NCBI GenBank assembly: GCA_046290465.1
Contig: JBKAGP010000001.1
Span: 4,608,001 to 4,672,000 of the forward strand
DNA: 64,000 nucleotides
Reading direction: 5' to 3'
Origin: Planctomycetota bacterium
Lineage (GTDB): Bacteria; Planctomycetota; UBA1135; UBA2386
Position numbers and translations under genes: made by a program. Shown in pieces: positions 18,482 to 45,398 of the stretch. A model generated the notes under the pieces. The model was not told the origin of the DNA and searched no databases. It saw nothing but the letters and a program-made list of their open reading frames with translations. Position 1 is the first letter of the stretch; each line of letters opens with the position of its first letter.

Positions 18482-18952
18482 TCAGTCGCCGGCCGCGCTT
18501 ACGAACAGGACCGTGCGCGTTCCGGAGCGTTCGTCGAACGCGACCGTCACGCGGTCGTCGACCCGGAGGTCGCTGCGCGATGCCGGGTCGCCGTTGCGGT
18601 AGATCGGCGTCTCGAGCTGGAGCTCGACCGCGACCAGCTTGCCGCCGTCCTGGACCTTGAGCTGGTCGCGGGCGACGGTGTCGACCTGGCCGCGCAGGAC
18701 CTCGTCGGCGGCAGCGAGCTGCGCCTTCAGGTGCTCGGGAAGCGGCGCCGGCTCTTCGGAGCCGTTGACGACGTCCTTCGCCTCGCGTCCCAGGCGCTCG
18801 AGGTCGCGCTCGACGCGCTGCTTGTCGACGGTGACGCCGACCGAGCTGCTGTTGTGAGCATGCGCGGCGTCGAACTCGATCCAGCCGGCGAACCAGCCGA
18901 TACCGCCGACGATCAGCGCGAGCAGGAAGATGAAACCTAGTGTCTTCAACAT
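18482..18952 (-). CDS. Hypothetical membrane-anchored protein
   Basis: N-terminal TM; C-terminal small beta domain (SDLRVDDRVTV); sigma-54 motif upstream. Confidence 0.7.
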   Translation of the reverse strand: MLKTLGFIFLLALIVGGIGWFAGWIEFDAAHAHNSSSVGVTVDKQRVERDLERLGREAKDVVNGSEEPAPLPEHLKAQLAAADEVLRGQVDTVARDQLKVQDGGKLVAVELQLETPIYRNGDPASRSDLRVDDRVTVAFDERSGTRTVLFVSAAGD

Positions 18953-18974
18953 GTGAAACCTCTGCCGTGGATGT

Positions 18975-18990
18975 AGCAACGTCCGTGCCG
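18975..18990 (-). promoter_or_regulatory. Sigma-54 promoter
   Basis: Minus strand CGGCACGGACGTTGCT. Confidence 0.65.
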
Positions 18991-19082
18991 CGTGTGGGCG
19001 TGGGCGGGTTGCGGAAACGAAGCGGGCCGAGGTGGGCGCGGTGCCCGACCTCGGCCCGTCGATCGACGTGGTCGATGGTTCG

Positions 19083-19883
19083 TTACGGGCGATCGCCGCC
19101 TTCGCGGTCCTCCTCTTCGCCTGCGCGCGCCTTCGAGCGAGCCTCGTCGGCTTGCTCCGACGCGCCGGTGTCGATGCTGGCCGCGAAGATCTGGTCGATC
19201 GGTTCGACCGGCTGCAGGCGCGCCGCTTCCGGAACCTCCTGACGACGGGCGTCGATCATCTCCCGGCGCAGGGCGACGCGGCGTTCGGCGACCTTGGCCT
19301 CGAGCAGCGACTGCTCGACGCGGTCGACCGCCTGGCACACCTTGGCGCGGTACGACGGCACATCGACCTCGGAGGCCTGCGGGCGATCGAGTTGGGCGAC
19401 GGCCTCGGCCTTATGGAGTTCGAGGCGCGCATCGGCGAGGCAGGCGCGGCTCTCGACCAGCGCCTTGCGCTTCACGGCGAGCGTGGCGACGTCGTCGTAG
19501 TAGGCGCGCTTGGCGTGCTCCAGGCGGCGGGCGTCGTTGATCTCGACGACCAGCGCTTCGGCCTCGCGGACCTGCTCCTGGCCGCTGTGGCGGCGCGCGT
19601 GGTGCACGCGGCTGGTGGCGTCGGCCAGCCGCGCTTCGGTGGTCGAGCAGTTGGCGTCGGCGAGGTCGCGCAGGTTGCGAACCTCGTTCAGGTCACGATC
19701 GGCGATCGCGACCTGCTCGCGGTACTCCGCGGCCTCACGTCGGGTCGCATCGATCCGGTCTTGCTTCGCCTCCGGAACGAACGCGAGCAAGCCGTCGCGC
19801 TCGTTGCTCGGCAGGTCGTGGTGGGTGGAACAGCCGACGGCGAACATGGAGCTGGCCAGCAGGGGGAAGGTGATTGCTTTCAT
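19083..19883 (-). CDS. Hypothetical coiled-coil lipoprotein
   Basis: MKAITFPLLASSMFAVGC lipobox; Ala/Glu/Arg-rich helices. Confidence 0.7.
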   Translation of the reverse strand: MKAITFPLLASSMFAVGCSTHHDLPSNERDGLLAFVPEAKQDRIDATRREAAEYREQVAIADRDLNEVRNLRDLADANCSTTEARLADATSRVHHARRHSGQEQVREAEALVVEINDARRLEHAKRAYYDDVATLAVKRKALVESRACLADARLELHKAEAVAQLDRPQASEVDVPSYRAKVCQAVDRVEQSLLEAKVAERRVALRREMIDARRQEVPEAARLQPVEPIDQIFAASIDTGASEQADEARSKARAGEEEDREGGDRP

Positions 19884-20136
19884 GATGGGCCTTGCCTCGT
19901 GGGCGGTAGGCCGCGGGTTCCAACAACCGTGCCAGGGCCCGGGTGGCGGCGCATCGGCACGAGGTTGCGGCCCTCGCGCGGGCAGGCGCCGGGCTGAGGT
20001 CGCGGTGCGTTCTCGCGGACGATGGCGGTGCGCCGTGGACCGTGTCGTTTCTACAAAGCACGACGATCTGCTCGGGTGCGGTGCGCGGCGGCTCCGCGAC
20101 GCTGCGTCGACGGCCGCGTCGGCGTGCGGCGGGGCG

Positions 20137-20152
20137 TGGCTCGGCAGTTGCA
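20137..20152 (+). promoter_or_regulatory. Sigma-54 promoter upstream of the phoD-like gene
   Basis: TGGCTCGGCAGTTGCA. Confidence 0.55.
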
Positions 20153-20172: not shown

Positions 20173-21693
20173 ATGAAGAACAGCTTTCGAGAAGACCCGG
20201 TGGACGACCTGCTCGCGATCGGCGCGGTCGACCAGGACAGTGCCAGGATCTGGGTTCGCAGCGCCACTCCGGGCCCACACGTATTGGAGGTGGCGGAGGC
20301 CGGCGACGCGGCGCGGCGACGCGTGCCGTTCGACGTGCCGGCGGACCCTGCTGCGGACAACCTGGCCGTGGTCACGGCGAACGGGCTCGCGCCGGGACGC
20401 GCGCACACCGTTGCCGTCGAACGCCCGGCGGACGAGGTCCTGCCGGCTCGGTCGATCGGAGCAGGTCGCTTCCGGACCGCGCCCGATACCGCAGGCGAGC
20501 GCGTCACGATCGGCGTGATGAGCTGCCACCAGCCGTTCGACGAGCAGGGTCGCTTCGATCCGGACGCGCGTGCGATGCTGGCGGGAGCCGACCAGCTGCT
20601 GCGCGAACGTGACGCCGCGTTCGTCTTGATGCTGGGCGACCAGATGTACTCCGACGCGCCCGACGGCTGCTCGCTGTACGACGACGACCACTTCGCGACC
20701 GTCGCGCCGCCGGGGCGCCGTCGCCTGCTCGACTGCGACGCGAACGAGGTCCGCAGGCTCTATCGCGAACGCCATCGCCGGTTCTTCGCGATGCCGGGCT
20801 GGCGCGAGCTGCTGGCAGGACGTCCGTGCTACGCGACGCTCGACGACCACGAGGTGGTCAACAACTGGGGCTCGTCGCCAGCGCACGACAGCGACGAATG
20901 GGCGGCTGTCCGGGACGGTGCGCTGCGCGCGTTCGTCGACTACCAGGGCAGCCGCGTCTACGACGTGCCCGAGCGACTGCCGCCGTCGCTGCACTTCTCG
21001 TTCTGCCACGGGCCGGTCGCGGTGATGGTCACCGACATGCGCACGCCGCGCTCGATCGCGCGTGGCACGCTGTTCGGCGAGCACCAGCTCACGGCGATCG
21101 AACGGTTCCTGCGGATGCACCGCGACGCGCCGGTCGCGGTCGTCGCGACGTCCCTGCCGTTGTTCCACATCCCCAAGCCGATGGCCTACCTGGGCGGCCT
21201 GCTGACCCCCGACGGCGACGACTTCTCCGATCGCGCGATCCACCCCGCGTTCGAGCACGAGTACCGGCGGATCTGCGCGATCCTGCGCTCGCACGTCGAA
21301 CGCCACCCCGAGCAGCAACTGGTGCTGGTCAGCGGCGACATCCATCTCGGTGCGATCTGCGCGATCGAGTGGCCCGGCGGCAGCAAGGCGGCGCAGCTGA
21401 TCTCGAGCGGCGTCACGCGCAGCCCGGAGACGGGCGTGGCCCTCGCCAGTTCTGCGGCGGTGCAGATGTCGCACCTGTCGCCGGATCGGTCCGGCGACGT
21501 GCCGTCCGCGACCGTGGTCGAGACCGAGGCGGACAACCCGTTCCTCAACCGCAACATGGGACTCGTCGACGTCGTGCCCGATGGGGACGGTGGGTATGCG
21601 GTTGAGCTTTCGCTGCACGGCCTGCTCGATGGTGGGCGCGATGGCGGTCGCTTCGGGGAAGCCGTCCGACAGCGGATGCACGGTCAGGGGTGA
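20173..21693 (+). CDS. PhoD-like alkaline phosphatase/phosphodiesterase
   Basis: GRFRTAP, MSC, LGDQMYSD, DDHEVVNNW, DMRTPR, SGDIH; no signal peptide seen. Confidence 0.85.
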   Translation: MKNSFREDPVDDLLAIGAVDQDSARIWVRSATPGPHVLEVAEAGDAARRRVPFDVPADPAADNLAVVTANGLAPGRAHTVAVERPADEVLPARSIGAGRFRTAPDTAGERVTIGVMSCHQPFDEQGRFDPDARAMLAGADQLLRERDAAFVLMLGDQMYSDAPDGCSLYDDDHFATVAPPGRRRLLDCDANEVRRLYRERHRRFFAMPGWRELLAGRPCYATLDDHEVVNNWGSSPAHDSDEWAAVRDGALRAFVDYQGSRVYDVPERLPPSLHFSFCHGPVAVMVTDMRTPRSIARGTLFGEHQLTAIERFLRMHRDAPVAVVATSLPLFHIPKPMAYLGGLLTPDGDDFSDRAIHPAFEHEYRRICAILRSHVERHPEQQLVLVSGDIHLGAICAIEWPGGSKAAQLISSGVTRSPETGVALASSAAVQMSHLSPDRSGDVPSATVVETEADNPFLNRNMGLVDVVPDGDGGYAVELSLHGLLDGGRDGGRFGEAVRQRMHGQG

Positions 21694-21717: not shown

Positions 21718-22623
21718 GTGCTTAGAACGAAGCGGGCAGCAGCCATCACGTGGCGGGCGGTCGTGGGATTCGTCGAGGACGATGCGTTGACCCACAGCGC
21801 CGCGGTCGCGTTCTACAGCGTGCTGTCGCTGGCACCGATCCTCGTGCTGATGCTCTGGGTCTCGTCCGGACTTGGCGACGAGGTTCAAGGCCAGTTGGTC
21901 GAGGAGCTGGCTCGGTTGATGGGCGCCGAGAGCGCCGAGGTCGTGCGTCGCGTGATGGAGATCACGGACACCACCGACGACGAGACCGCGACCATGTCCG
22001 GGTGGCTCAGCGGCGGCATGCTGGTCCTGTCTGCCACGGCCGTGTTCGCGCAGTTGCAGTTCGCGCTCAACGCTATCTGGGAAGTCCCTGCAAGGTCCGA
22101 TCGCAAGATGATCCTGCCGTGGTTGCGCAAACGAATGCTGTCGCTCGGACTGATCGTGTCGACCGGCTTCCTGCTGTTGGTTTCGATGATCGTCAGCTCC
22201 GCGCTGACGGCGGTCCTCGGCGCGCTCCACGATCAGTTGTTCGAGACCTCGACGATCGTCTGGGTGCTCACGGAACAGGCGCTGCCGTTCGCCGTCTACC
22301 TGCTGCTGTTCATGGCGGTGTTCCGGTTCGTGCCCGACGTGCGGCTGCGGTGGCGCGACGTGGCCTTCGGTTCGTTGGTCACCGCAGGCCTGTTCCTGCT
22401 CGGCAAGTCGTGCATCGGGATCTACCTTGGCACCAGCGGGCTCCGTTCGAGCTATGGCGCCGCCGGCTCGCTGGCGATGATGTCGATCTGGGTCTACTAC
22501 TCGGTGGCGATCGTCCTGTTCGGTGCCGAGCTGACCAAGGCGCGGGTCGGGGCTCGCGACCAGGCCGTGCCGTTGGAGGCGCATGCCGGGCAGGCGTCGG
22601 CGCAGGCTCGTTCGCTTGACTGA
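21718..22623 (+). CDS. YihY/BrkB family membrane protein
   Basis: AAVAFYSVLSLAP, ALNAIW, YGAAGSL, WVYYS...LFGAE. Confidence 0.9.
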   Translation: MLRTKRAAAITWRAVVGFVEDDALTHSAAVAFYSVLSLAPILVLMLWVSSGLGDEVQGQLVEELARLMGAESAEVVRRVMEITDTTDDETATMSGWLSGGMLVLSATAVFAQLQFALNAIWEVPARSDRKMILPWLRKRMLSLGLIVSTGFLLLVSMIVSSALTAVLGALHDQLFETSTIVWVLTEQALPFAVYLLLFMAVFRFVPDVRLRWRDVAFGSLVTAGLFLLGKSCIGIYLGTSGLRSSYGAAGSLAMMSIWVYYSVAIVLFGAELTKARVGARDQAVPLEAHAGQASAQARSLD

Positions 22624-22678: not shown

Positions 22679-23338
22679 TCAATCGAGCTGCGTGATCAAC
22701 CAGGCACCGCCGAGCAGCCCGGAGGCCGTGGCGGTGAGCACGGCGACCTTGGGAAATCGGGCCGCCAGCACCATCGCTCCGCCGACGACGGCAGCCGCGA
22801 CGGCGAGCAGGAGCGACTCGAGCAGCCAGTCCTGCAGGGTCCAGCTGCTGTCGGTGTGTGGCGCAACGGACGTCGGCGCGGGGTTGCGGGCCAGTTGTGT
22901 CTTCGCTTCGCGGTCTCCGCCCTGGGCTCGAACCTGCTCGAAGGTTGCCCTTCGCTTTGCGACGCGGGCCTCGACTTCGGTCGCCGTCGCGGTCCGTTCG
23001 CTGGGCAGGCCGGTCGACGCGTCGGGGCTGCCGTCTGCGCCGCTGCGCGCGTCGACGCGGCCTTCGTCGATCTTCGGCGGCTCGCTCGCGTGCGCGGGAC
23101 GATCGAGAGGCTGTGTCGCAACCTCCGAGAACGCCGCGGCATCCTCAGGATCGTCGCCGGCTTCTGTGCCGCCGACGACCTCGTCGTCGTCGTCATCAAC
23201 GGCCTGCTCGGGCCGGAACGGCCGATCGCTGTCGACGACTTCGAGGCGTTCGAGCGGCTGCTGCCGCTCGACCCCGCCGAACAGGCTGCAGCCGCAGATG
23301 GCCAGCAACGGCAACCAGAGGATCGATCGCGCGTTCAT
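22679..23338 (-). CDS. Hypothetical lipoprotein with C-terminal TM helices
   Basis: MNARSILWLPLLAICGC lipobox, acidic linker, two hydrophobic C-terminal helices; overlaps the upstream stop (ATGA). Confidence 0.6.
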   Translation of the reverse strand: MNARSILWLPLLAICGCSLFGGVERQQPLERLEVVDSDRPFRPEQAVDDDDDEVVGGTEAGDDPEDAAAFSEVATQPLDRPAHASEPPKIDEGRVDARSGADGSPDASTGLPSERTATATEVEARVAKRRATFEQVRAQGGDREAKTQLARNPAPTSVAPHTDSSWTLQDWLLESLLLAVAAAVVGGAMVLAARFPKVAVLTATASGLLGGAWLITQLD

Positions 23339-24543
23339 CCGGACCTCTGCTGGGGTCCGGAGGAGGTTGGATGCGGTCGGGTGATGTCGTCGAGTTCGAC
23401 CGAATCGTCGATGGCCGGGCCGAGCGCGACCAGGAAGGCGTTGCGCAGGATGCTGCCGACGGCCGTGACGAGGTCGGGCGTCACCTCGCTCCAGGTCCCG
23501 GAGACCGGGGTCCTCGCGGCCAGGCGATCGTGCGGCTGGTTCTCGAGCACTTCGGCAGCGACGGCAACCAGGCCTTCCCACAGGTTCTGGGCTGCATCTA
23601 CGGGCGAGTTCCACTCCTCGAAGTGGGTGACCTGCAGATCCTCGAACAGCGTCTTCACGTAGCCTTCGACCCGCCCCGACGAGCTGGCGAACTCCGAGTA
23701 GACGTCGAGCGTTCCGCCCTCCGCCTCGACGCTGCCGTATGCGGCGAAGAAGTCGTTGAGGTCGGTCAGTTGGAGCTTGCGCACGGACGCGTCGAGTTCG
23801 AATCGCGGCGGGTGCGTCAGCGGGTCGAACCGCAGGCGGGCTTCGAACTCACCTGTGCCGAACGGGCGTCCGGCTGCTTCGACCTCGGCCGGCAACTGCG
23901 CGGCGTCTTCGTCGTCGGTGGCGCCCTCCCCGCGGATGTTGGTCACGTTGAGCGCCTCGAGATAGAAGTCGGTGATGTAGGCGTCGACCATCGGGTCGGT
24001 CCTCACGTCCCGCACGCGGAGTTCCCCATCGCGCACGACGAAGCGGTTGATCTCGAACGGTGCGAACTCATCGAGCCGCGCCGTCCAGTCGGTCTGCTCG
24101 CCGGTTCGCTGCACGGGTTCGTGGTCCGCGAGCGCGAAGTCGGCGACCGGTTGATGCAGCGTGACCTCCGACACGATCCGGCCCCGCAGCAGGCCGGCCC
24201 ACTGCAGGGCGACGTCGATCCTCGCGACGGTCAGCAGCGGTCGCGCCGTGCGGTCGTCTGCTTCGAACAGCCGGAGACCGCGGATCTGGTGGGCGCCGCG
24301 CCACAACTTGAGGTCGACGCCTTCGATGGTCCCCCGCACGTTGTCGGCCTTGTCGAGCACATGGTTGATCCATGCACGCACCACCGAGGGCAGGGCGGCC
24401 CGCGCGCAGACCAGCACCAGCAGCGACCCGCAGAACGCACGCCAGAAGGTCAGGCGGCGTTTGCGGATCCGGTCGCCTGCGCGATCGTGGCACGAGGGAC
24501 TGGCGCCCCGATCCGGCGTGCGATGATGTCGATCGGTTCTCAT
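23335..24543 (-). CDS. DUF748/AsmA-like envelope protein
   Basis: TM, then GTIEGVDLKLWRG, LNDFFAAYG, GYVKTLFEDL, ILRNAF. Confidence 0.75.
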   Translation of the reverse strand: MRTDRHHRTPDRGASPSCHDRAGDRIRKRRLTFWRAFCGSLLVLVCARAALPSVVRAWINHVLDKADNVRGTIEGVDLKLWRGAHQIRGLRLFEADDRTARPLLTVARIDVALQWAGLLRGRIVSEVTLHQPVADFALADHEPVQRTGEQTDWTARLDEFAPFEINRFVVRDGELRVRDVRTDPMVDAYITDFYLEALNVTNIRGEGATDDEDAAQLPAEVEAAGRPFGTGEFEARLRFDPLTHPPRFELDASVRKLQLTDLNDFFAAYGSVEAEGGTLDVYSEFASSSGRVEGYVKTLFEDLQVTHFEEWNSPVDAAQNLWEGLVAVAAEVLENQPHDRLAARTPVSGTWSEVTPDLVTAVGSILRNAFLVALGPAIDDSVELDDITRPHPTSSGPQQRSG

Positions 24544-24560: not shown

Positions 24561-24576
24561 CGCAACATCCATGCCC
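24561..24576 (-). promoter_or_regulatory. Sigma-54 promoter of the DUF748 gene
   Basis: Minus strand GGGCATGGATGTTGCG. Confidence 0.6.
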
Positions 24577-24710
24577 GTGCCGGTCGGCCCCGGGGTTCGA
24601 CGGCCCGCTCCGCGGCCGTATCGGTCGTGCGTGTGAGCAGATTGCAGATCTCGCACACGCACCGTTGCCCCGACGCAGGGATTCCGCGCGGGCCGTTCGT
24701 CCCACCGCGT

Positions 24711-24726
24711 TGGTACGCAGCTTGCT
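24711..24726 (+). promoter_or_regulatory. Sigma-54 promoter of sodC
   Basis: TGGTACGCAGCTTGCT. Confidence 0.7.
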
Positions 24727-24741: not shown

Positions 24742-25272
24742 ATGAAGATGATTCGAAGTTGTTCCGTCGCCCTCCTCGCGCTGGCTGCCTGCACCTCGGA
24801 TGTCGGTTCGCACGGCCACTCCGTCGACACGGCGATCTGTGTCCTGCAGCCCGTCGGCGATTCCGGCGTGACCGGCAGGCTGCTCGTGACCCCGACGTCC
24901 GACGGTGTGCGGATCGTCGGTGAGGTGCGCGGCCTGACGCCGGGCGAGCACGGCTTCCATGTGCACGAGTTCGGCGACCTGAGCGACCTTCGCGAGGGCA
25001 AGTCCGCCGGCGGCCACTTCGCCCCGGGTGGCCACGATCACGGCGCGCGCGAGCACGGCGAACGGCACGCGGGTGACCTCGGCAACATCGTGGCGGGCGA
25101 CGACGGCGTCGCCAAGGTCGACATCCGGGACGGTGTGATCGCGCTCGGCGGCAAGCACTCGATCGTCGGTCGCGCCCTGGTCGTGCACGCCGAACGCGAC
25201 GACTACGGGCAGCCGACCGGCAACGCCGGGGCGCGCGTCGCGGTGGGCGTGATTGGTATCGCGCGGCGCTGA
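24742..25272 (+). CDS. sodC: Cu/Zn superoxide dismutase (lipoprotein)
   Basis: LAAC lipobox; [34 protein letters not shown]. Confidence 0.95.
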
Positions 25273-25979
25273 TGCCGCCCGGATCTAGAAGCGCGTCCAT
25301 GTAGTGGACGCGCGGCCAACCATGATCGCGGAAGCGGCGTGTGCGCGTGCGGACGGGGCTTTGCCTCCTGACCCTCGTTCGGCTTCGCGTCGAGCGGGGC
25401 CTCGAGGTCGCGCGCGAGCAGGATCGCATCGGCGATGTCGAGCAGCTTGCGCCGCTTGCTGGCGGCGGTCTTCTGCAGCATGCGGAAGGCCTCCGACTCG
25501 TCGAGGCCGTGCTGCTTCATCAGCACGCCCTTGGCCTTCTCGATCGTCTTCCGCGCCGTCAGCGCCGACTTCAGGTCCTGCACCTCGGCCTGCAGTTCGC
25601 GGAACTGCTCGAACCGCGCGAGGACCAGCTTGATGGTGGGGCGCAGATCCTCCTCCACGACCGGCTCGACCAGGTACGCCATCACGTGGTCCTCGAGCGC
25701 CCGTTCGACGCTGGCGAGGTCCGAGCGCGGGGTGACGATGATGCTCGGCAGCGGGTCGATGCGGGAGATGTCGATCAGCGAGCGGATCGCGTCCCCGTCC
25801 TCGAGTCGCAGCGACGACAGGATCAGGTCCGGTCGCGTGCCGCGGCACGTCGACATGACCTCGGCGCGCGTCGAGACGTGCCCCGCGACGTCGTGGCCCA
25901 GGGACGTCAGTAGCTGCGACAGCTCGTTGCCGCGTTCCGTATCGTGATGGGCAACCAGGATCTTGTGACTCTCGTCCAT
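25203..25979 (-). CDS. ANTAR-domain regulator with a pseudo-receiver domain (NasT/AmiR-like)
   Basis: [12 protein letters not shown]...[15 protein letters not shown] signature; receiver lacks the phosphoacceptor Asp (DLILSS) and the Lys (YLVEP). Confidence 0.88.
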
Positions 25980-26012: not shown

Positions 26013-26028
26013 AGCAAGATACCTGCCA
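26013..26028 (-). promoter_or_regulatory. Sigma-54 promoter of the ANTAR gene
   Basis: Minus strand TGGCAGGTATCTTGCT. Confidence 0.7.
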
Positions 26029-26155
26029 GGCCACGGGGTTCGCCGGAGGAATTATCTCGCCAGGGGCTGGCCACGGTCGTGGCGTGGCCGCTACAAGGTA
26101 TGGGTCTTCGTCCGCTGACCCATGACGGCTCGGTTTGGACTCGCCAAGAGCCATC

Positions 26156-32587: not shown

Positions 32588-32647
32588 GGTCGTGATTCCG
32601 GTGCGATCCGATGGGCAGCGCCGATGGCGTCGATACGATAGTTGCCG

Positions 32648-35910: not shown

Positions 35911-35926
35911 TGGCACGGCGGTTGCT
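35911..35926 (+). promoter_or_regulatory. Sigma-54 promoter of the DUF1328 gene
   Basis: TTTGGCACGGCGGTTGCT, near consensus. Confidence 0.8.
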
Positions 35927-37058: not shown

Positions 37059-37074
37059 GGGCACGCGCCTTGCT
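37059..37074 (+). promoter_or_regulatory. Sigma-54 promoter of the csbD operon
   Basis: GGGCACGCGCCTTGCT. Confidence 0.7.
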
Positions 37075-37147: not shown

Positions 37148-37375
37148 GTGACTACCCGAGCCCTCGAGGGCAGCTGGCTCCGTCTCAAGAGCCAACTCAA
37201 ACGCAGCTGGAGCAAACTCACCGAAGGCGACCTGGTCGCGATCCGCGGTGACCACACGCACGCGGCCGTGCGCATCCAGATGCGCTACGGCTCGCAGCGC
37301 GAAGCTGCGCAGACCGAGTGGGCCCACTTCTGCGAGAACTACTCGCGCGGTCTCGTCGCCACGGGCAAGGAGTAA
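37148..37375 (+). CDS. CsbD family protein (divergent)
   Basis: AGGAG RBS plus GTG; LEGSWLRLKSQLKRSWSKLTEGDL..I.G......IQMRYG. Confidence 0.75.
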   Translation: MTTRALEGSWLRLKSQLKRSWSKLTEGDLVAIRGDHTHAAVRIQMRYGSQREAAQTEWAHFCENYSRGLVATGKE

Positions 37376-37380: not shown

Positions 37381-37833
37381 ATGCGATTCGAACGATTGGA
37401 AAACACCCTCAACGACCTCCGCACGCGCATCAAGGGCAAGTGGAGCAAGCTTACCAAGGCCGACCTCGACAAGATCGAGGGCCACTACTCGGAGCTGGCG
37501 GACGTCATCGCCAAGCGCTACTCGATGTCCAAGGGCGAGGCCAAGGAAGCCGTCGAGGAGTTCGGCGACGAGGTCGGCACGACGTTCGGCGAGGTCGCGC
37601 AGCACCTCGGGGACGCGGCGTCGGACGCCTGGCGCAACGGTCGCCATGCGGTCAAGGAGGCCTTCGACCGCACGGCCGAACGCGCCGGCGATGCGTGGCA
37701 GAGCACCAAGGACGGCGCGCAGCACCTGCGCGAGCGCACCGGCGAGGTCGTCAAGCAGAAGCCGCTGACGTCGATCCTGGTCGCCGCGGGCGTGGGTATC
37801 TTCGCCGGCTTCCTGCTGCGCCGGAGCCGCTGA
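37381..37833 (+). CDS. CsbD domain fused to a DUF883/ElaB-like C-terminus
   Basis: IKGKWSKLTKADLDKIEG...IAKRY; C-terminal VKQKPLTSILVAAGVGIFAGFLLRR. Confidence 0.85.
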   Translation: MRFERLENTLNDLRTRIKGKWSKLTKADLDKIEGHYSELADVIAKRYSMSKGEAKEAVEEFGDEVGTTFGEVAQHLGDAASDAWRNGRHAVKEAFDRTAERAGDAWQSTKDGAQHLRERTGEVVKQKPLTSILVAAGVGIFAGFLLRRSR

Positions 37834-37841: not shown

Positions 37842-38459
37842 ATGCGCCGCGACCCCAGCAGCTCGCACGACGAGGGCCCTGAGCGGTCCTCTCTGCTGCA
37901 AGACCTGTCGCTTGCCGCCCAGGGTGCTCGCCAGGGCATCCGGGCGGCGGCCGGAATGGCCGAGCAGGAGCTGGAGCGGGTGCGCCTGCGCTCCAAGGTC
38001 TGGCTGTCGGAGCTCGCGCTGCGCGCACTGGCCGGCATCCTGCTGGTCTTCGCCGCCTGCCTTGCGTTGGCGCTCGGGGTCTACGGGCTCGTCACCGGCC
38101 TCACCGACGGCCTCGGCTTGCCGATGTGGGCCGCCGCGCTCACGGTCTCCGGTCTGATGCTGGCGACCGGTGCCGTCTCGTATCTTCGATGGCGCAGCAA
38201 CGTCCGCCGCAAGCAGCACGACGCCGGCGACCACACACACCATCTCGCCGAGCTTCGCCGTGCGCGCCGCAAGATCACGCGTGGCCTCTCGAGCCCCAAG
38301 GCGCTGCTGACCGTCGGTGGCGTCGGCGCGGGTGCCGCCGTGGCCCTTCGCAGCCGCGGCGTGCGCAGGATGGTCGTGGCCGGAACGCGCCTGGCGAAGT
38401 ACAGCACGCTGCGCAAGATCCTGCGCGATACGAGCCAGGCTTCGCGCCGCGCCAACTAG
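37842..38459 (+). CDS. YqjE/holin-X-like membrane protein
   Basis: Amphipathic helix, two TMs (…MWAAALTV) and a basic tail; typical partner of DUF883 genes. Confidence 0.6.
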   Translation: MRRDPSSSHDEGPERSSLLQDLSLAAQGARQGIRAAAGMAEQELERVRLRSKVWLSELALRALAGILLVFAACLALALGVYGLVTGLTDGLGLPMWAAALTVSGLMLATGAVSYLRWRSNVRRKQHDAGDHTHHLAELRRARRKITRGLSSPKALLTVGGVGAGAAVALRSRGVRRMVVAGTRLAKYSTLRKILRDTSQASRRAN

Positions 38460-38591
38460 CGTCGCTGTCGATCCGCCGGCATTCGTGACGCGCGGCGGAT
38501 CCCGTTTCTACAAAGCAGCAGGACGCCACGGCCGCTGCGGTGGCCCTCTTGCCGAGCAGGCACGTGGTCTGGTTGTTGCGAAGGCGTGGGC

Positions 38592-38975
38592 ATGCAATCC
38601 CTCGTCCCCCTCTCGCTCGCAGCTGCCTGTCTCCTGATGTCCTCGTGCTCCGAAGGTCGCACCCGCACCGTCGAAGCCAGCACCGACGGCCCACAAGAGC
38701 CGATCAACGGATTCGACACCGACGTGCTCGAGCCGGACCTCGGCAACGACGGTGCATCCAGCGCGGGTGCTCCGCCGGGTACCGTCGACGACGCCTCGGT
38801 CGCTTCGTCTCCCGATCGTGCGTCTGCTGGCAGTTCGCCGCCGGGTGGTGGGGCGCAGGGAAGCGGCGCGCAGCCAGTGCCGGAGCCGAGCACGCTGCTG
38901 TTGCTCGGCAGCGGTTTGGCGGGGGTCGGAGCTTCGATGTTCCGACGCCGTCGCAAGCCGCAACAGGGCGCGTAG
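38592..38975 (+). CDS. Small PEP-CTERM protein with a lipoprotein-like signal
   Basis: C-terminal VPEPSTLLLLGSGLAGVGASMFRRRRK; N-terminal LLMSSC. Confidence 0.85.
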   Translation: MQSLVPLSLAAACLLMSSCSEGRTRTVEASTDGPQEPINGFDTDVLEPDLGNDGASSAGAPPGTVDDASVASSPDRASAGSSPPGGGAQGSGAQPVPEPSTLLLLGSGLAGVGASMFRRRRKPQQGA

Positions 38976-39154: not shown

Positions 39155-39170
39155 TGGCACGCCTTCTGCA
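39155..39170 (+). promoter_or_regulatory. Sigma-54 promoter of the PRC-barrel operon
   Basis: TTGGCACGCCTTCTGCA. Confidence 0.7.
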
Positions 39171-39291
39171 TTCGACCGCATGCCTTCGTCGCGAGGGCGG
39201 CCCATCCGGGAACGCTCCCGCGTCGCGAAGCAACTCGCAGGTCGGCACCTCGGTGGCGACCGACACCAACACCATCACCGAACGACAAACG

Positions 39292-40620
39292 ATGAACCTC
39301 AACCTCCCGCTCCTCGCCAGCGCCGCCGCTGCGCTGGCCGTTCTCAACCCGGCTACGGCGCAGGACGACGCCAAGAAACGCAGCGCCGACCGCCCGATCT
39401 TCGTCTCGACCGACTCCCTGATGGGCTGCAAGGTCGAGTGGCCCGGTGACGCGAAGTGCACCGTCAAGGACGCGCTGGTCGACCCGTCGACCGGACGCAT
39501 CGCCGGCCTCGTCATGGACAGCGGCGCGATCGCCAGCTTCGACCGCCTGTGCTGGAACCCGGACGCGAGCTGCTTCGCCTGCACGAAGCCGCAAGCCGGC
39601 ACCGCCGAGGCTGCGAGTTCGAAGAAGAAGACGGACGCGGAAGCCAAGGACGCCGCCGCGAGCACCAAGGCCGGCCGGCCGCTCGACGGCACCTTCCTGC
39701 TCTCGAGCGTCGTGAGCCTGCCGCTCGTCGGCTACGAGCGCACCGAAGAAGGGGACCGCAAGGACTGCGAGATCGGCTCGGTCGGCGGCGCGTTCGTCGA
39801 CACGTGCTCGGGCAACCTGGCGTTCGTCACGACGTCGGTCGGCGGTGTGCTCGGCATCGGCGCCGAGTCGCGCGTCATCCCGTGGTCGGCCGTCTGCGTC
39901 GAACGCGGCGCCGAGGGTGAGTTCCAGCTGAGCACCGACATCCACAAGAAGCGCCTCGAGAAGGCGCCGGCGTTCGGTGACGGCGCCGACAACCTGCACA
40001 ACCCGAACTACCGCGACACGCTCTACTCATACTACGGCACGCGCCGCGCCGACTTCGAGCCGGCGTCGAGCGACGGCGTCTCGGTGATCCCGGTCGACCA
40101 GATGATGGGGGCCACGATCGTCCGCGCCGGCAACGCGAAGGGCTCGCTGAAGGACCTCGTGCTCGACCCGAAGAGCGGCCAGGTGTCGCTCGCCATCTGT
40201 GCCAACGGCGACGTCGTGCCGGCGTCGGCGCTGCGCTGGGACGAGCGGGCGAAGCAGTTCCAACTGAGCGGTGACGTGAAGCCGGTCGAGATGGACGCCA
40301 ACCAGGAGCAGATCCTGGCCTCGGCGCTCGCCGACTACAGCGTCATGTGCGGCTCCGAGCGGACCGGTGACCTGGAGGACGTCTACTTCGACGCCAACGC
40401 CGGCAAGATCGCCTACCTGTCGATCGAGAAGGACGGCGTTCGGGTCCTGCCGTGGTCGGTGGTCACGCTGAACACGGAAGGCAAGCAGCCGAGCATCTGC
40501 CTCGGTTGCGCGCACGACGCCCTGGAGAACGCTCCGAAGCTCAACGGCGAAATGGGCGCGACCATCTACAGCCCGGCGTTCCGTGCGCGCGTCGCCGCCG
40601 TCGAAACCAAGCCGCAATAA
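39292..40620 (+). CDS. Exported multi-PRC-barrel protein
   Basis: Signal peptide; four repeats of the G.VKD.LVD...G.I.Y...IPW pattern; GGVLGIG, LEKAPAF, YSYYG. Confidence 0.8.
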   Translation: MNLNLPLLASAAAALAVLNPATAQDDAKKRSADRPIFVSTDSLMGCKVEWPGDAKCTVKDALVDPSTGRIAGLVMDSGAIASFDRLCWNPDASCFACTKPQAGTAEAASSKKKTDAEAKDAAASTKAGRPLDGTFLLSSVVSLPLVGYERTEEGDRKDCEIGSVGGAFVDTCSGNLAFVTTSVGGVLGIGAESRVIPWSAVCVERGAEGEFQLSTDIHKKRLEKAPAFGDGADNLHNPNYRDTLYSYYGTRRADFEPASSDGVSVIPVDQMMGATIVRAGNAKGSLKDLVLDPKSGQVSLAICANGDVVPASALRWDERAKQFQLSGDVKPVEMDANQEQILASALADYSVMCGSERTGDLEDVYFDANAGKIAYLSIEKDGVRVLPWSVVTLNTEGKQPSICLGCAHDALENAPKLNGEMGATIYSPAFRARVAAVETKPQ

Positions 40621-40632: not shown

Positions 40633-40839
40633 ATGAACAAGCCCGTGAGCATCGCCCTGGTCGTCGTCGGTCTGATCCTGCTGGTGATGGGCTTCAACGC
40701 CACGGAGGCCTTCGCCTCCGAGGTGTCGGAGTTCTTCACCGGCTCGCCGACCGACAAGGCCATCTGGCTGATCCTCGGTGGTGCCGCGGCGCTCGTCCTC
40801 GGCGGCATCGGCCTCCTCAACCGTTCGAAGCGATCATGA
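40633..40839 (+). CDS. DUF3185-family small membrane protein
   Basis: SEVSEFFTGSPTDKAIWLILGG between two TMs. Confidence 0.85.
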   Translation: MNKPVSIALVVVGLILLVMGFNATEAFASEVSEFFTGSPTDKAIWLILGGAAALVLGGIGLLNRSKRS

Positions 40840-41252
40840 CACCCAAAGGCGAAGCAGTCGGCCCGATGGCCGACCCCGGCAGGTCGACGACGACGATCTG
40901 CACCGCGTTGTTCCCCAACGGTCGCGCGGCCGACGCCGCGGTGCACGACCTCGTCCGGTCGGGCGTCCCCGCGGGCGACATCAGCCTGATCGACTCCGAG
41001 CACGACGGCCGCGGTCCCGCGGTCGTCGGCGCCGATGCGGTTGCCGCCGAAGCGGACGCACATCGCGGGCAGCTCCTCGCGAGCGGCCCGACGTCCTCAC
41101 CCATCCCCGGTCGGCTGCCGACGAACGGCTCGGCCAACCGGGCAGCCGGAGCGCTGGTCATGGTCGGCCTGCACTGCGGCGATCCCAGCGGGAGCGATCG
41201 TGTCCTGACGATCTGCGCCGCCGCCGGCGCGCTCAGGACGTCGGCGATCTGA
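40836..41252 (+). CDS. General stress protein 17M-like (possibly internally deleted)
   Basis: TALFPNGRAADAAVHDLVRSGVPAGDISLI, ASGP, GALVMV...ICAAAGA; the usual Gly-zipper core is absent. Confidence 0.55.
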   Translation: MTPKGEAVGPMADPGRSTTTICTALFPNGRAADAAVHDLVRSGVPAGDISLIDSEHDGRGPAVVGADAVAAEADAHRGQLLASGPTSSPIPGRLPTNGSANRAAGALVMVGLHCGDPSGSDRVLTICAAAGALRTSAI

Positions 41253-41292: not shown

Positions 41293-41730
41293 ATGGACAT
41301 CTACACCAGACTGAAGCAAGACCACCGACGCCAGCGCGAACTCGCGGCGCGACTCGCCGATACCAGCGGCGACTCCGCGGATCGGCAGCAACTCTGGCAG
41401 CAGTTCCGTGCCGAGCTGGAGAGCCACGCCAACGCGGAAGAGCAGACCCTCTACGCCGCTTTGATCGAGCGTCCCGAGGCACAGGAGAAGGCGCAGCACA
41501 GCATCGCCGAACACAAGGAAGCCTCCGACCTGATCGAGGAGCTCGACGACATCGACATGTCGAGTCCGGCCTGGCTGCAGAAGTTCAAGCAGCTCCAGGA
41601 CGAGGTCGAGCACCACCTCGACGAAGAGGAGGCCGAGGTGTTCCCGCTGGCCAGCCAGCTGTTCGACTCGAGCCTTGCCGAGCACCTCGGCGCGAAGTTC
41701 GACGAGCGCAAGGCTGCCGAGTGCGCGTGA
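41293..41730 (+). CDS. Hemerythrin HHE-domain protein
   Basis: LKQDH, HANAEEQTLY, EH, HHLDEEEAEVFP. Confidence 0.9.
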   Translation: MDIYTRLKQDHRRQRELAARLADTSGDSADRQQLWQQFRAELESHANAEEQTLYAALIERPEAQEKAQHSIAEHKEASDLIEELDDIDMSSPAWLQKFKQLQDEVEHHLDEEEAEVFPLASQLFDSSLAEHLGAKFDERKAAECA

Positions 41731-41805: not shown

Positions 41806-42249
41806 ATGACCGACAACAAGCATCAGAACGACATCGACCGACTCAATTCCTTCCTTCGCGGCGAGATCTCCGCCGTCGAGACCTACCGGCAAGCGCTCGA
41901 GAAGGTCGAGGACGCGACCGCCGAGGTCGTGCTGCGTAACAACCTGGCCAACCACCAGGGGCGCGTGACCAGCCTCGCCGCCAGGATCCTGCGCCTGGGC
42001 GGCGAGCCCGCCGAGAGCAGCGGCGTGTGGGGCGCGTTCGCCAAGGCGATCGAAGGCGGCGCGAAGATCTTCGGCGAGTCCGCCGCGGTCGCCGCGCTCG
42101 AAGAGGTCGAGGACCACGGCCTGCACGACTACCAGAACGACCTCGACCGCCTCTCGCCGGAGATTCGCCAGATGGTCGCGACGGAGTTGCTCCCCGAACA
42201 GCAGCGCACCCACGATGCGCTGTCGCGCCTGAAGAAGGCGATGAACTGA
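41806..42249 (+). CDS. PA2169/DUF2383 ferritin-like four-helix bundle protein
   Basis: LNSFLRGEISAVETYRQALEK, LGGEPAESSGVWG, LEEVEDHGLHDY. Confidence 0.85.
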   Translation: MTDNKHQNDIDRLNSFLRGEISAVETYRQALEKVEDATAEVVLRNNLANHQGRVTSLAARILRLGGEPAESSGVWGAFAKAIEGGAKIFGESAAVAALEEVEDHGLHDYQNDLDRLSPEIRQMVATELLPEQQRTHDALSRLKKAMN

Positions 42250-42344: not shown

Positions 42345-43745
42345 GTGAAGTTCCTCCCGTGCCTGCTGTTCTCGTCGTTCCTGCTGCTGTCGCCGGCAGC
42401 GTTGGCGCAGCAAGCGCCCGACCCGAAGGCTCCTGAGGGGCTGCAGTCCTCGCAGAAGGAGGTCGAGGTCGAGCAGGTCACCGACGACGACCGCATCACC
42501 GACCGTCTGCGCGACATCCTGGCGACGACGGAGCGATTCCCCGACGTCGACCTGCGCGTCGAGCACGGCGTCGCGCTGGTGCGCGGCACCGTCGCCGACG
42601 AAGCGGAGCGCGCGTGGGTCGTCGACCTTGCGAGCAACACCGAGGGCGTGGCGGCGGTCTCCAGCCAGCTCAAGCTGCGCGAATTGCCGGTGTGGAACCT
42701 GACGCCCGCGCTCGATGAACTCGGCGGCTTGTGGCGCCAGTTCGTCGAATCGCTGCCGCGGATCCTGGCCGGAGTGCTCATCCTGATCGGCGTGATGATG
42801 TCGGCGGGCCGCGCGGCGAGGTGGTTGAGCAAACCCCTCGAACGCCGCATCTCCAGCGAACTGCTGCGGTCGGTTGCCAACAAGGCCGTGCTGGTGGCGT
42901 TCTGGCTGTCGGGCATCTACGTGTTCCTGCGCGTCTCCGGTCTGACCCAGGTAGCGATGACCGTCGTCGGCGGCACCGGCGTGCTCGGCATCGTGCTCGG
43001 CTTCGCGTTCCGCGACATCGCCGAGAACTTCCTCGCCAGCGTGCTGATCAGCCTGCAGCGCCCGTTCCGTTACGGCGACACGATCGAGGTCGACGGACAC
43101 CTCGGCGTGGTGCAGCGCGTGACCCCGCGCGGCACCATCCTGATGGACTTCGACGGCAACTACATCCAGATCGCCAACGCGCAGGTCTACAAGAGCACGA
43201 TCAAGAACTACACGGCCAACCCCAACGTCCGTCAGGACTTCACGGTGGGCATCGGCTACGACGTCGACGTCGTGCACGCCCAGGAGGTCGTGATGGAGAC
43301 CCTGCGCGAACACTCGGCCGTGCTCGCCGATCCGCGCCCGATGGTGCTCGTGCGCGAACTGGCCTCGTCGACGATCAACCTGCAGGTCTACTTCTGGATC
43401 GACGGCAGCAAGCACAGCCAGCTGAAGGTGCGTTCGGCGCTGATGCGGCTGGTGTTGAGCGCGTTGGAGCGCGAGGGTGTCAGCATGCCGGACGATGCTC
43501 GCGAGATCATCTTCCCCGACGACGTGCCCGTGCGCATGCTCGACAGCACGGCGGCCGCGGCCGCGTCCGCGTCCGAGGACGATGCTGGCGCGAGCGACGA
43601 CCGACCCGCGCAGCGTTCGCCGGAGTTGCAGGCCGAGGCGACCGCTGCCGAAGGCAGCCTCGAGAGCGAGACGCGCGAGGTCAACGACCAGGCCAGGCGG
43701 TCCCGTTCGCCCGAGGAGGGCGAGGACGTGCTCGCGGCGAACTGA
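42345..43745 (+). CDS. MscS mechanosensitive channel with an N-terminal BON domain
   Basis: VEHGVALVRGTV...EGVAAV (BON); GFAFRDIAENFLAS, PFRYGDTIEV, NYT, VGIGY. Confidence 0.9.
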   Translation: MKFLPCLLFSSFLLLSPAALAQQAPDPKAPEGLQSSQKEVEVEQVTDDDRITDRLRDILATTERFPDVDLRVEHGVALVRGTVADEAERAWVVDLASNTEGVAAVSSQLKLRELPVWNLTPALDELGGLWRQFVESLPRILAGVLILIGVMMSAGRAARWLSKPLERRISSELLRSVANKAVLVAFWLSGIYVFLRVSGLTQVAMTVVGGTGVLGIVLGFAFRDIAENFLASVLISLQRPFRYGDTIEVDGHLGVVQRVTPRGTILMDFDGNYIQIANAQVYKSTIKNYTANPNVRQDFTVGIGYDVDVVHAQEVVMETLREHSAVLADPRPMVLVRELASSTINLQVYFWIDGSKHSQLKVRSALMRLVLSALEREGVSMPDDAREIIFPDDVPVRMLDSTAAAAASASEDDAGASDDRPAQRSPELQAEATAAEGSLESETREVNDQARRSRSPEEGEDVLAAN

Positions 43746-43757
43746 CGCCGCGCGCGC

Positions 43758-45371
43758 TCAGAACAGCTGCGCGTCGCCGCTCTCCGGGTCGACGTAGCGC
43801 ACCGCGTAGAGGCTGGCCCGCCGGTCGTCCCACGGCTGGAACGTGCCGGCGTGACGCATGCGCCGCAGCAGTTCGAGGTCGACGTCGTGGATCACGAGCG
43901 TCTCGATATTGGGCGTGCACTCACCGCCGATGCCGTCGCGCGCGAACGAGAAGTCGACGGGCGTGAACACACCGGACTGCGAGTAGTGCACGTCGGCGTT
44001 CTGCACGAACGGCAGGTTGCCGGTCGCGCCGGAGATCGCGACGTAGACGTTGTTCTCGACGGCGCGGGCCTGCGCGCAGTAGCGCACGCGCAGGTAGGCC
44101 TGCCGGTTCTCGGTCGAGAACGGCACGAACAGCAGCCGCGCACCGCGGCTGACGGCGACCCGGGCGATCTCGGGGAACTCGACGTCGTAGCCGAGCAGGA
44201 TCGCGACCTTCCCGCAGTCGGTGTCGAACACCTCGATGCCGTCGCCGGCCTCCAGACCCCACCAGCGCCGCTCCGCCGGCGGAATGTGCAGCTTGTACTG
44301 CTTGTCGATCGTGCCGTCGCGGCGGAACAGGTAGGCGATGTTGTAGAGGTGGTCGTCCTCGACGGTGAACTGCGAGCCACCGACGATGTTGACGTTGTAC
44401 TTGATCGACATCCTCGTGAAGAACTCGAGGTAGGCCGGCGTGTGCTCGGCGAGCGCGCGCGCCGCGTCGCTCGGCCGCCGCTTGGTATCGGCGACCGCCA
44501 GCAGCTGCGTCGTGACCAGCTCCGGGAACACGACGAAGTCGGCTTTGCTGTCCGACGCGGTATCGAGGAAGTACTCGCACTGCGCGCAGAACTCCTCGAA
44601 CGTCTCGAGGTGCCGCATCTGGTACTGCACCGCGCAGATCCGCGCCAGCGCCACCGACTGCATGCGGCGCGGCGCGGTCTCCTCGACGTGGTCGAGGTTG
44701 GTCCACTCCAGGTGCGTCGCGAAGCCGCGCGATGCGGTGTCGGACGGGAAGTAGTTCGGGATCAGCTTCTTCAGCACGAAGCCGTTGGCGACCTGCGTCG
44801 TCAACACCGGGTCGTAGAGGCCGCGGCTGACGACCTTCTCGACATACTCACGCGGGGACAGTTCGTCCGCGTACTTGCCGTAGCCGGGGATGCGGCCGCC
44901 GATGATGATGCGCGCGAGGTTGTGCCGCCGCGCGATCTCCTTGCGCACCTCGTACAGCCGCCGCGCCAGGCGCATGCCGCGGTACTGCGGGTGCACCATG
45001 ATCTCGATGCCGTAGAGGGTGTCGCCGTTGGCGTCGTGGTTGCGGATGTAGCCGCCGTCGGCGATCTCGCGCCAGTCGTGCCACTCGTCGTGCATGCCGA
45101 AGTCGACGATCAACGAACTGCACGAGGCGACGATCTGCCCCTGGTACTCGATGCACGCCTGGCCCTCGGGGAACAGCGTCAGCTGGCTCTCGATCTGGTC
45201 GCGGCCCCACGGCTCCATGCCCGGAAAGCAGCGCTTCGCCATCTCGACCAGCTGCTCGTAGTCCTCGATGCGGGTCTGGCGCAGCAGGATCTTCTTCTCG
45301 AACGCCTCGAGCGGCAGCTCCCCGAACTCGTTCGGTTCGGGGGGCACGTCACCGGTGGGGGGCTGGCTCAT
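43758..45371 (-). CDS. GNAT acetyltransferase fused to a carbon-nitrogen hydrolase domain
   Basis: FPEGQ, LYGIEIMVHPQYRGMRLARRLY, GGRIPGY; FPEL, QYKLHI, LLGYDVEFPE, ARAVEN. Confidence 0.9.
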   Translation of the reverse strand: MSQPPTGDVPPEPNEFGELPLEAFEKKILLRQTRIEDYEQLVEMAKRCFPGMEPWGRDQIESQLTLFPEGQACIEYQGQIVASCSSLIVDFGMHDEWHDWREIADGGYIRNHDANGDTLYGIEIMVHPQYRGMRLARRLYEVRKEIARRHNLARIIIGGRIPGYGKYADELSPREYVEKVVSRGLYDPVLTTQVANGFVLKKLIPNYFPSDTASRGFATHLEWTNLDHVEETAPRRMQSVALARICAVQYQMRHLETFEEFCAQCEYFLDTASDSKADFVVFPELVTTQLLAVADTKRRPSDAARALAEHTPAYLEFFTRMSIKYNVNIVGGSQFTVEDDHLYNIAYLFRRDGTIDKQYKLHIPPAERRWWGLEAGDGIEVFDTDCGKVAILLGYDVEFPEIARVAVSRGARLLFVPFSTENRQAYLRVRYCAQARAVENNVYVAISGATGNLPFVQNADVHYSQSGVFTPVDFSFARDGIGGECTPNIETLVIHDVDLELLRRMRHAGTFQPWDDRRASLYAVRYVDPESGDAQLF

Positions 45372-45382
45372 CGTGGATCTCT

Positions 45383-45398
45383 TGCAATCATCTCGCCG
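45383..45398 (-). promoter_or_regulatory. Putative sigma-54 promoter of the GNAT-hydrolase gene
   Basis: Minus strand CGGCGAGATGATTGCA. Confidence 0.5.

Follow-up and report, generated by a model that had tools for sequence, protein, structure and literature searches.

Whether a planctomycete might run a general stress response through sigma-54, and whether light commands it, is the question raised by a block of genes in a Planctomycetota bacterium (assembly GCA_046290465.1). The window is a 64,000-nucleotide stretch of contig JBKAGP010000001.1 (positions 4,608,001–4,672,000), and the block lies at window positions 18482–45398, where stress-type genes surround a signalling core that includes a bacteriophytochrome. 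A first-pass annotation, made from the sequence itself, described this block as a light-gated, sigma-54-driven general stress regulon under a local NtrC-type activator. Our analysis confirms the underlying observation and supports the interpretation in part. A sigma-54 regulon is highly probable here, well supported by its promoters, a conserved upstream site and conservation in relatives, and light is predicted to be an accessory input to it (or the phytochrome one of its outputs) and not its gate. The reading that we favor, a stress regulon under the local activator to which the phytochrome would supply one optional extra input, we consider evenly balanced between right and wrong.

The genome is a single contig of 6.59 Mb with 70% GC and is 94% complete. 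Metagenomes from three studies, of marine and aquaculture origin, contain near-identical DNA; those of two studies were compared with the window, and an algae metagenome that is possibly the source was set aside. Relatives are 91 genomes of the same family (labelled G###, the window's own being G000, and G004, also L032, belonging to the same genus); loci outside the family with related activators number 77 and come from the best 80 of a genome scan.

Sigma-54 promoters and a conserved upstream site

CsbD, ElaB/DUF883, DUF1328, BON, PRC, YihY, MscS and SodC proteins are typical general-stress effectors, and Pfam and NCBIfam profile searches place such families in the block (Table 1). The gene inventory of the first-pass annotation is borne out by profile matches for the signalling core and the effector families, with a reservation over its two CsbD proteins: both score 15 bits (E 0.02) in the window, below the cut-off, and the first is upheld through its G024 orthologue (44% identical), which scores 66 bits against a cut-off of 40. 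Overlooked were an ANTAR pseudo-receiver, PhoD, DUF748, PEP-CTERM and beta-barrel proteins, a holin-X/YqjE-like gene and the upstream site described below. None of the models for RpoS, SigB/F/G and PhyR finds a match above its family cut-off in this 94% complete genome, EcfG itself not having been searched for.

Eleven sigma-54 motifs had been listed for the block. A matrix derived from 58 strict sites, none of them in the block, scores eight of these as strong (11.2–20.2 bits) and three as weak (38566, 39156 and 45397; 7.9–8.6 bits), and a twelfth, on the minus strand at 19933 (11.3 bits), had been missed. The 2,723 bp of intergenic DNA in the block contain nine sites of at least 11 bits, compared with a mean of 0.23 and a maximum of two in 200 dinucleotide shuffles, and the strict form GGYA-N6-TTGC is present seven times where 0.48 are expected; the anticipated excess over shuffled DNA is thus real, although the bare GG-N10-GC pattern is not enriched (592 found, 674 expected) and was rejected as evidence. 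We also rejected the site at 45397 as a regulon promoter, since it is weak, lacks the upstream site and would place the transcription start at the ATG; a paralogue of the gene behind it (3.87 Mb) has no sigma-54 site. The signalling genes of the block have no sigma-54 site, with the exception of the ANTAR gene.

Two rpoN genes are present (1.16 and 6.17 Mb), together with 24 full sigma-54 activator domains, and sigma-54 is therefore a general tool of this organism. Genome-wide there are 97 oriented promoters of at least 11 bits, chaperone genes among their targets. The notion that the block is the densest sigma-54 window of the genome holds for oriented sites near called genes (nine, with seven in the next window), and is weakened by a copper and heavy-metal efflux island (2,970,000–2,991,000), in which six strong sites of at least 12 bits at 2.97–2.98 Mb surround the island's own activator.

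Alignment of 39 promoter regions, drawn from the block and eight homologous stretches, reveals a second element, TTTCTACAAAG and variants of it, about 55–130 bases 5' of the promoter GG, with divergent promoter pairs having sites in common. TCTACAAA is found in 14 of the 39 promoter regions and in 2 of 1,611 other upstream regions, and the exact 11-mer TTTCTACAAAG has two copies in the genome, both within the block. With a matrix built from the relatives alone, five of eight block promoters have a site of at least 9 bits compared with 5 of 89 other sigma-54 promoters (Fisher p 2e-4). Two of these five non-block promoters precede a BON gene (5.26 Mb) and a second DUF1328 gene (3.71 Mb), and five promoters in a PRC/PA2169 island at 1.08 Mb have the site at 7–8.5 bits. 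In homologous stretches outside the training set the site exceeds 11 bits at six of seven promoters in G567 (four distinct sites) and two of three in G550, the background rate being 1.1% of 1,128. Taken as a single pattern, upstream site and promoter match in 4 of the 11 family genomes that have the activator and in 1 of the 80 others, in a test where seven of the ten matches are training sites and the window's own genome fails the strict pattern. The matrix does not carry over to the distant loci, where it gives 12 bits or more to 5 of 212 promoters and a kindred pattern, TGYAA-N3-TTRCA, accompanies 16 of the 212. We infer that the upstream site is the binding site of the local activator.

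The regulon extends beyond the one block of about 27 kb that had been proposed: promoters of this type also precede BON, DUF1328/MscS and PRC/PA2169 genes at other places in the genome, and two of them have the upstream site. The second island (1,077,000–1,093,000) has seven sigma-54 sites among PRC, PA2169-like, PAP2-like and membrane genes and adjoins a hybrid kinase; at 3,708,700–3,713,400 sites precede a receiver-groES-groEL operon, the second DUF1328 gene and a lipoprotein-MscS pair. Strict sites also precede groEL at 134,658 and a small heat-shock-like gene at 5,208,846, so labelled from its sequence. The PEP-CTERM genes at window 38586–38975 and at 854,692 have an N-terminal stretch in common; the latter has a strong sigma-54 site and no upstream site, and the former a weak sigma-54 site but a perfect upstream site.

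The activator and its predicted relay

The NtrC-type activator has the intact GAFTGA motif previously reported, at residue 217, along with Walker A/B motifs, an arginine finger region and the HTH. Next to it is a DHp protein with the conserved His and no ATP-binding boxes, which is likely to be a phosphotransfer protein; a homologue search returned a same-species protein as its sole result. The conserved signalling core is a predicted operon of a membrane sensor kinase, a single-domain receiver (presumably Rcp1-like) and a hybrid kinase. Six of the 11 genomes with the activator place the DHp gene ahead of it and this operon, in divergent orientation, beyond, a synteny conserved among relatives. 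ChpT-type phosphotransferases and LuxU-LuxO relays join a hybrid kinase, a His protein without ATP-binding boxes and a response regulator, an order that is predicted for the block as well; a low-confidence model of the DHp protein (pLDDT 54) matches kinase cores including those of DivL and RetS, with ChpT not among the matches listed. Kinase specificity could not be read from helix residues: against the DHp helix the phytochrome came out at 1/55 with two sets of positions and at 16–17/55 with two others, and the approach was rejected because its outcome varies with the set.

We propose that the stress-type genes of the block would be transcribed from sigma-54 promoters with a common upstream site, which the phosphorylated local activator would bind to open those promoters. 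The membrane kinase would signal to the single receiver and the hybrid kinase, and the latter would pass phosphate through the DHp protein to D54 of the activator. The heme oxygenase would supply biliverdin to the phytochrome, which may, like BphP acting on AlgB, bring far-red light to this activator as an extra, optional input, and the Asp-less ANTAR protein might tune the cassette through protein contact and RNA binding. Such a regulon would take the place of RpoS, SigB or EcfG-PhyR and extend to stress genes beyond the block.

The phytochrome cassette

The genome encodes no PHY protein other than the phytochrome (PAS-GAF-PHY-HisKA-HATPase). Its best solved relative is Pseudomonas aeruginosa BphP (9RCC/9EUT), matched over its full length including the kinase domain (525 bits), whereas phytochromes of other organisms score 330 bits or less. 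The heme oxygenase gene directly upstream is called below the cut-off (20.8 bits against 23); its orthologues are 41% identical and the one in G024 is above the cut-off. The ANTAR gene faces away from these two in the window and has its own sigma-54 site. Among its homologues 38 of 53 lack the phospho-Asp, six have it and nine could not be parsed; as the window protein lacks it, we rejected this protein as a phosphorylated partner. An 81-base palindromic repeat (25285–25365; 165 BLAST pieces genome-wide, some in tandem) overlaps the ANTAR frame at its 3' end; that frame has 231 residues here and 203 in a 98% identical database protein.

A 17-base element, CTGACCCAYGACGGCTC, precedes the heme oxygenase gene and folds differently in the three genomes that have it; by the definition in the accessible part of PMC3369931 it does not qualify as a canonical ANTAR dual hairpin. 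A search for that target (A1/G4 loops) gave one loose match at 24612 and none before the cassette. AmiR/NasT-type antiterminators, as far as that source describes them (PMC3369931), likewise join a receiver without phospho-Asp to ANTAR; they differ in that no canonical dual hairpin was found before the cassette and in that the partner here is apparently the phytochrome cassette and not a ligand-binding protein.

Phytochromes of this type were detected in 3 of the 91 family genomes, each of which also has the activator (chance of co-occurrence 0.011 with the window genome left out, although kin are not independent), and this ANTAR regulator occurs in exactly the same three. In G020, G004 and G567 the contig runs continuously across the place of the phytochrome, and the cassette is cleanly absent with relay and regulon present. 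The kinase part of the phytochrome was not found in 400 other genomes of the phylum at E 1e-38, and 41 genomes of the order of G497 yielded no BphP-type gene. Although a first metagenome scan with a single protein as query gave no match, 5 of the 80 closest metagenome phytochromes are convergent to the same kinase-receiver operon, the cassettes concerned (L134, L136, L137, L138 and L140; ~64% GC) having a CHASE3-like kinase, a receiver and a hybrid kinase arranged as in the window.

ANTAR homologues are also present in 7 of 20 genomes of a second planctomycete family, where five of six stretches fetched are sigma-54 stress islands and two place the homologue beside a heme oxygenase and a phytochrome unlike that of the window; where an activator is in view, it lies outside the clade of the window activator. 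Phytochrome cassettes therefore appear to have joined sigma-54 stress islands more than once.

Light as input, output or gate

A light input is plausible on the grounds that the phytochrome matches P. aeruginosa BphP in type and that BphP phosphorylates AlgB; if the regulon is accepted, the balance tips slightly toward light acting on the activator through a predicted phosphotransfer. A range of observations weighs against the reading that we favor, for either its light input or its regulon. Of the 11 family genomes with the activator, eight yielded no such phytochrome, a search out to 10 kb from 80 activator loci met no phytochrome, and in a survey covering 50 of 76 distant loci 42 genomes were without a phytochrome at E 1e-60 (eight had one, four of BphP type). 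None of the five metagenome cassettes has an activator within 10 kb. In G031 and G024 the ANTAR, oxygenase and phytochrome genes are co-directional and follow a promoter that has the upstream site, as an output would. The light response of P. aeruginosa, framed as repression of biofilm and virulence, proceeds largely through DimA and AlgU and is not shown as one of sigma-54 promoters (PMC6932827, PMC12780092). The pairing of activator and site, like the relay, is predicted from sequence. In the block, the promoters at 18989, 26027, 37060 and 45397 have a weak upstream site or none, as do three of four promoters in G546, five of five in the G572 stretch and the single one in G548. The genome has 23 other activator domains and two rpoN genes, and DUF1328, present in 10 of 11 activator genomes, is also found in 15 of 80 family genomes without the activator.

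The co-directional cassettes fit a possibility that we judge unlikely while taking it seriously, namely that the same regulon turns on the ANTAR regulator, oxygenase and phytochrome as an output or side branch, and that the phytochrome then acts for another purpose on the ANTAR protein, on the single receiver or on the hybrid kinase. The identical distribution of ANTAR regulator and phytochrome, the sigma-54 site of the ANTAR gene in the window and the metagenome pairing of phytochrome and kinase-receiver operon without a nearby activator agree with it, and in the accessible part of PMC6932827 P. aeruginosa bphP expression is reportedly under RpoS. Against it, an ANTAR receiver without phospho-Asp cannot be a phosphorylated partner, the oxygenase and phytochrome genes have no sigma-54 site in the window genome, and induction by the regulon is compatible with feedback on it, as in the DimA-AlgB loop.

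The strict form of the original proposal, in which light is the gate and the phytochrome relay is required for expression of the whole block, appears improbable. A BphP-type phytochrome does adjoin the relay, the genome has no other PHY domain, and far-red light induces stress genes in P. aeruginosa (PMC12780092), but the relay and regulon persist without a phytochrome on the contiguous contigs of G020, G004 and G567, and the conserved core includes a membrane sensor kinase. With the phytochrome in just 3 of 11 activator genomes, and its cassette behind a regulon promoter in two, light is therefore probably accessory, as an input or as an output, and not a gate; "light-gated" was too strong a term, and the phytochrome-free surroundings of the activator at a distance lend it no support either.

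Distribution of the activator and its islands

The activator is present in 11 of the 91 family genomes, where CsbD, DUF883, DUF1328, DUF3185 and PRC genes with sigma-54 sites are reshuffled around it. Upstream site, promoters and activator stay together through these rearrangements across six genera. The distant loci, in Betaproteobacteria, Binatota, Acidobacteriota, Myxococcota and others, have stress families within 10 kb at 46 of 77 (representatives were checked by profile and the rest read from sequence), intergenic sigma-54 sites at 66 and rpoN at 22. In a quick tree of 123 rows chosen by similarity, the window activator clades with the distant ones and with both Ralstonia GMI1000 megaplasmid activators (SH-aLRT 92), and 20 other activators of the window genome fall outside.

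Pairs of divergent activators from this clade, back to back amid stress genes and mostly adjoining rpoN, are found in Achromobacter, Bordetella, Orrella and Ralstonia (L054, L064, L071, L072, L074, L098, L099, L112). Giant kinases of ~1,500–1,700 residues recur in such islands (L222:4326-9382, L243:11758-16218, L244:2981-8137); that of L222 has a CheB-CheR-PAS-kinase-receiver order and is directly upstream of an oxygenase and a phytochrome.

We think it as improbable as a strict light gate that the promoters are genuine and driven by one or more of the other 23 activators, or that an architectural or repressor protein occupies the upstream site, with the local activator a mere neighbor. The wide use of sigma-54 in this genome, DUF1328 in genomes without the activator and the islands of the second planctomycete family with an activator of another clade would fit such an arrangement; the joint travel of site, promoters and activator across six genera, and the rarity of the site at other sigma-54 promoters, argue for the local activator. 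That the motifs are chance matches in 70% GC DNA, as the unenriched bare pattern and the three weak sites might suggest, is refuted for eight sites by the shuffle test, by orientation and by conservation in relatives, and is very remote overall.

Relationship to known systems

KinB of the BphP-AlgB-KinB system is a membrane kinase/phosphatase, unlike the soluble DHp protein whose gene adjoins the window activator. Other differences are the clustering of sensor, relay, activator and targets in the window and the ANTAR pseudo-receiver that accompanies the phytochrome. The two systems are alike in their whole-length BphP-type phytochrome, in the heme oxygenase gene directly before it and in an NtrC-type activator with GAFTGA. 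Copies of the AlgB motif TGCA-N3-TGCA (PMC12780092) were spotted by eye at 34908–34918, within one upstream site of the block, and at one G031 promoter, the dominant site being TTTCTACAAAG, and the core TGYA of the upstream site recurs both in this motif and in TGYAA-N3-TTRCA. BphP phosphorylates AlgB in P. aeruginosa, as well as "AlgB orthologues" of Achromobacter and Rhodospirillum, and does not phosphorylate NtrC (PMC6932827). Far-red light raises transcripts of katE (catalase HPII), glycogen synthase, trehalose synthase and Ku 6- to 13-fold, and those of PA14_62680, 62690, 72360, 72370 and 47130, listed as hypothetical, 3- to 10-fold (PMC12780092). The window activator groups with Rsp1667/8-type proteins in our tree, from which AlgB itself is absent; AlgB had no model among the 25 NCBIfam models listed, and no solved structure of it was found. 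The five hypothetical genes we take to encode CsbD, BON, DUF1328 and DUF883 proteins.

The rpoN2 locus on the Ralstonia solanacearum GMI1000 megaplasmid is a second close relative. Its activator is 55% identical to that of the window over 368 residues and belongs to the same clade, and DUF1328, ElaB and YihY genes with sigma-54 sites adjoin it; the locus differs in having two GSFTGA activators and an adjacent rpoN, where the block has one GAFTGA activator and no adjacent rpoN. One promoter in the locus matches the rpoN2 promoter printed in the accessible part of PMC4371752, and Rsp1667/1668 are listed without function, with the role of rpoN2 left open, in what is accessible of PMC4676750.

The RpoS, SigB and EcfG-PhyR-NepR responses have effector families like those of the block, which differs in its control by sigma-54 and an ATP-driven activator. 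In the accessible portions of the sources, light input through LOV kinases is known for the stress responses of Bacillus and Caulobacter, sigma-54 control is predicted for MscS, chaperone and USP genes in Planctomycetia (PMC12316311), and PMC3162934, PMC8657755, PMC12802281 and PMC11722255 hold nothing closer to the regulon of the block. Our literature search, to which subscription papers were mostly closed, found no description of a sigma-54 general stress regulon of such make-up. What this analysis adds is the upstream site, a phytochrome that relatives can dispense with, and its association with the ANTAR regulator.

Features of the block and its surroundings

Contigs of an RNA run (X20), 97–100% alike to the window, cover DUF1328, CsbD-DUF883, PRC, DUF3185 and other genes, with no long piece on the signalling genes among the pieces listed; contigs give no gene ranking or transcript starts, DNA may be present in the library, and the run was not counted as support. 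Outside the block, four tandem flagellin genes of 275 residues each (49004–53266) lie beside fliD/fliS, with two more sigma-54 activators near them (53504 and 61153), and a TPR protein with pentapeptide repeats (17352–17500) lacks 36 bases in another strain.

Table 1. Features of the stress-gene block in window coordinates, ordered by position.
Feature	Coordinates	Strand	Basis or remark
Small exported/membrane protein, regulon member	18482..18952	-	No Pfam match; homologues in G031, G004, G048, G567 blocks
Sigma-54 -24/-12 site	18976..18989	-	17.3 bits
Coiled-coil lipoprotein, no family	19083..19883	-	Sequence; 46% homologue in G567 behind sigma-54 site and upstream site
Sigma-54 site, TTGG at -12	19920..19933	-	11.3 bits; overlooked previously
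Candidate activator site, exact TTTCTACAAAG	20048..20058	+	Between two divergent promoters
Sigma-54 site	20138..20151	+	11.2 bits
PhoD-like phosphatase	20173..21693	+	PF09423
YihY/BrkB membrane protein	21718..22623	+	Profile
Lipoprotein-like ORF, no family	22679..23338	-	Sequence
DUF748 protein	23335..24543	-	Profile
Sigma-54 site	24562..24575	-	13.5 bits
Candidate activator site	24639..24650	-	10.4 bits; common to divergent DUF748 and sodC promoters
Sigma-54 site	24712..24725	+	17.3 bits
SodC Cu/Zn superoxide dismutase	24742..25272	+	PF00080
ANTAR regulator with pseudo-receiver	25285..25979	-	Profile, alignment; Ser at phospho-Asp position
Sigma-54 site of ANTAR gene	26014..26027	-	14.4 bits; no upstream site (4.4 bits)
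17-base element CTGACCCAYGACGGCTC	26115..26131	+	Kept in three of three cassettes; single genome copy
Heme oxygenase, BphO-like	26135..26776	+	PF01126 weak; likely start in-frame ATG 26156
Bacteriophytochrome kinase, P. aeruginosa BphP type	26773..28998	+	Cys20, DIP, PRxSF, His522
REC-HisKA-HATPase-REC hybrid kinase	28992..30623	-	Profile
Single-domain receiver	30604..31050	-	Profile
Membrane sensor kinase	31070..32587	-	Profile
DHp protein (HisKA-only)	32642..33334	+	Profile, alignment, model; invariant His, degenerate ATP-binding domain
REC-AAA-HTH sigma-54 activator	33366..34868	+	D54, Walker A/B, GAFTGA, HTH
Candidate activator site	34908..34922	+	14.8 bits; contains exact TGCA-N3-TGCA
Sigma-54 site	34983..34996	+	19.0 bits
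Outer-membrane beta-barrel lipoprotein	35009..35695	+	PF13505 weak; G024 homologue behind promoter and upstream site
Candidate activator site	35828..35839	-	12.2 bits
Sigma-54 site	35912..35925	+	20.2 bits
DUF1328 small membrane protein	35973..36140	+	Profile
62-residue lipoprotein-like ORF	36216..36404	+	Sequence
137-residue lipoprotein-like ORF	36483..36896	+	Sequence
Sigma-54 site	37060..37073	+	16.5 bits; upstream site weak, 7.7 bits
Divergent CsbD/YjbJ-like protein	37148..37375	+	Profile below cut-off, orthologue above
CsbD-like and DUF883 (ElaB-like) fusion	37381..37833	+	Profile
Holin-X/YqjE-like membrane protein	37956..38459	+	PF07332
Candidate activator site, second exact TTTCTACAAAG	38505..38515	+	
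Weak sigma-54 site	38566..38579	+	7.9 bits
PEP-CTERM protein	38586..38975	+	PF07589
Weak sigma-54 site	39156..39169	+	8.6 bits; strong sites at homologous PRC genes of relatives
PRC-barrel protein	39253..40620	+	Profile
DUF3185	40633..40839	+	Profile
128-residue ORF, no family	40866..41252	+	Sequence
Hemerythrin	41293..41730	+	Profile
PA2169/DUF2383 four-helix bundle	41806..42249	+	Profile
BON-MscS channel	42345..43745	+	Profile
GNAT-carbon-nitrogen hydrolase, doubtful member	43758..45371	-	Weak site 45384-45397
Weak sigma-54 site	45384-45397	-	8.0 bits; no upstream site

Implications

The general stress response of planctomycetes and of many betaproteobacteria is poorly defined. The block unites promoters, a candidate activator site, an activator and its putative relay in one place, so that the hypothesis of sigma-54 control can be tested there; it also represents a predicted compact light pathway of the BphP-to-activator type outside Pseudomonas, and offers a phytochrome-linked ANTAR pseudo-receiver. 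A broader interpretation, possible but doubtful, is that these loci represent a fourth kind of bacterial general stress response, consisting of sigma-54 and one widespread activator clade (in Planctomycetota, Betaproteobacteria, Acidobacteriota, Myxococcota and Binatota), into which planctomycetes would have plugged heme oxygenase-phytochrome-ANTAR cassettes at least twice. Algae-associated cells may then read far-red light as a forecast of stress, with the RNA-binding pseudo-receiver as the partner of the phytochrome. If true, this would account for the orphan rpoN2 loci of Ralstonia, Achromobacter and Bordetella.

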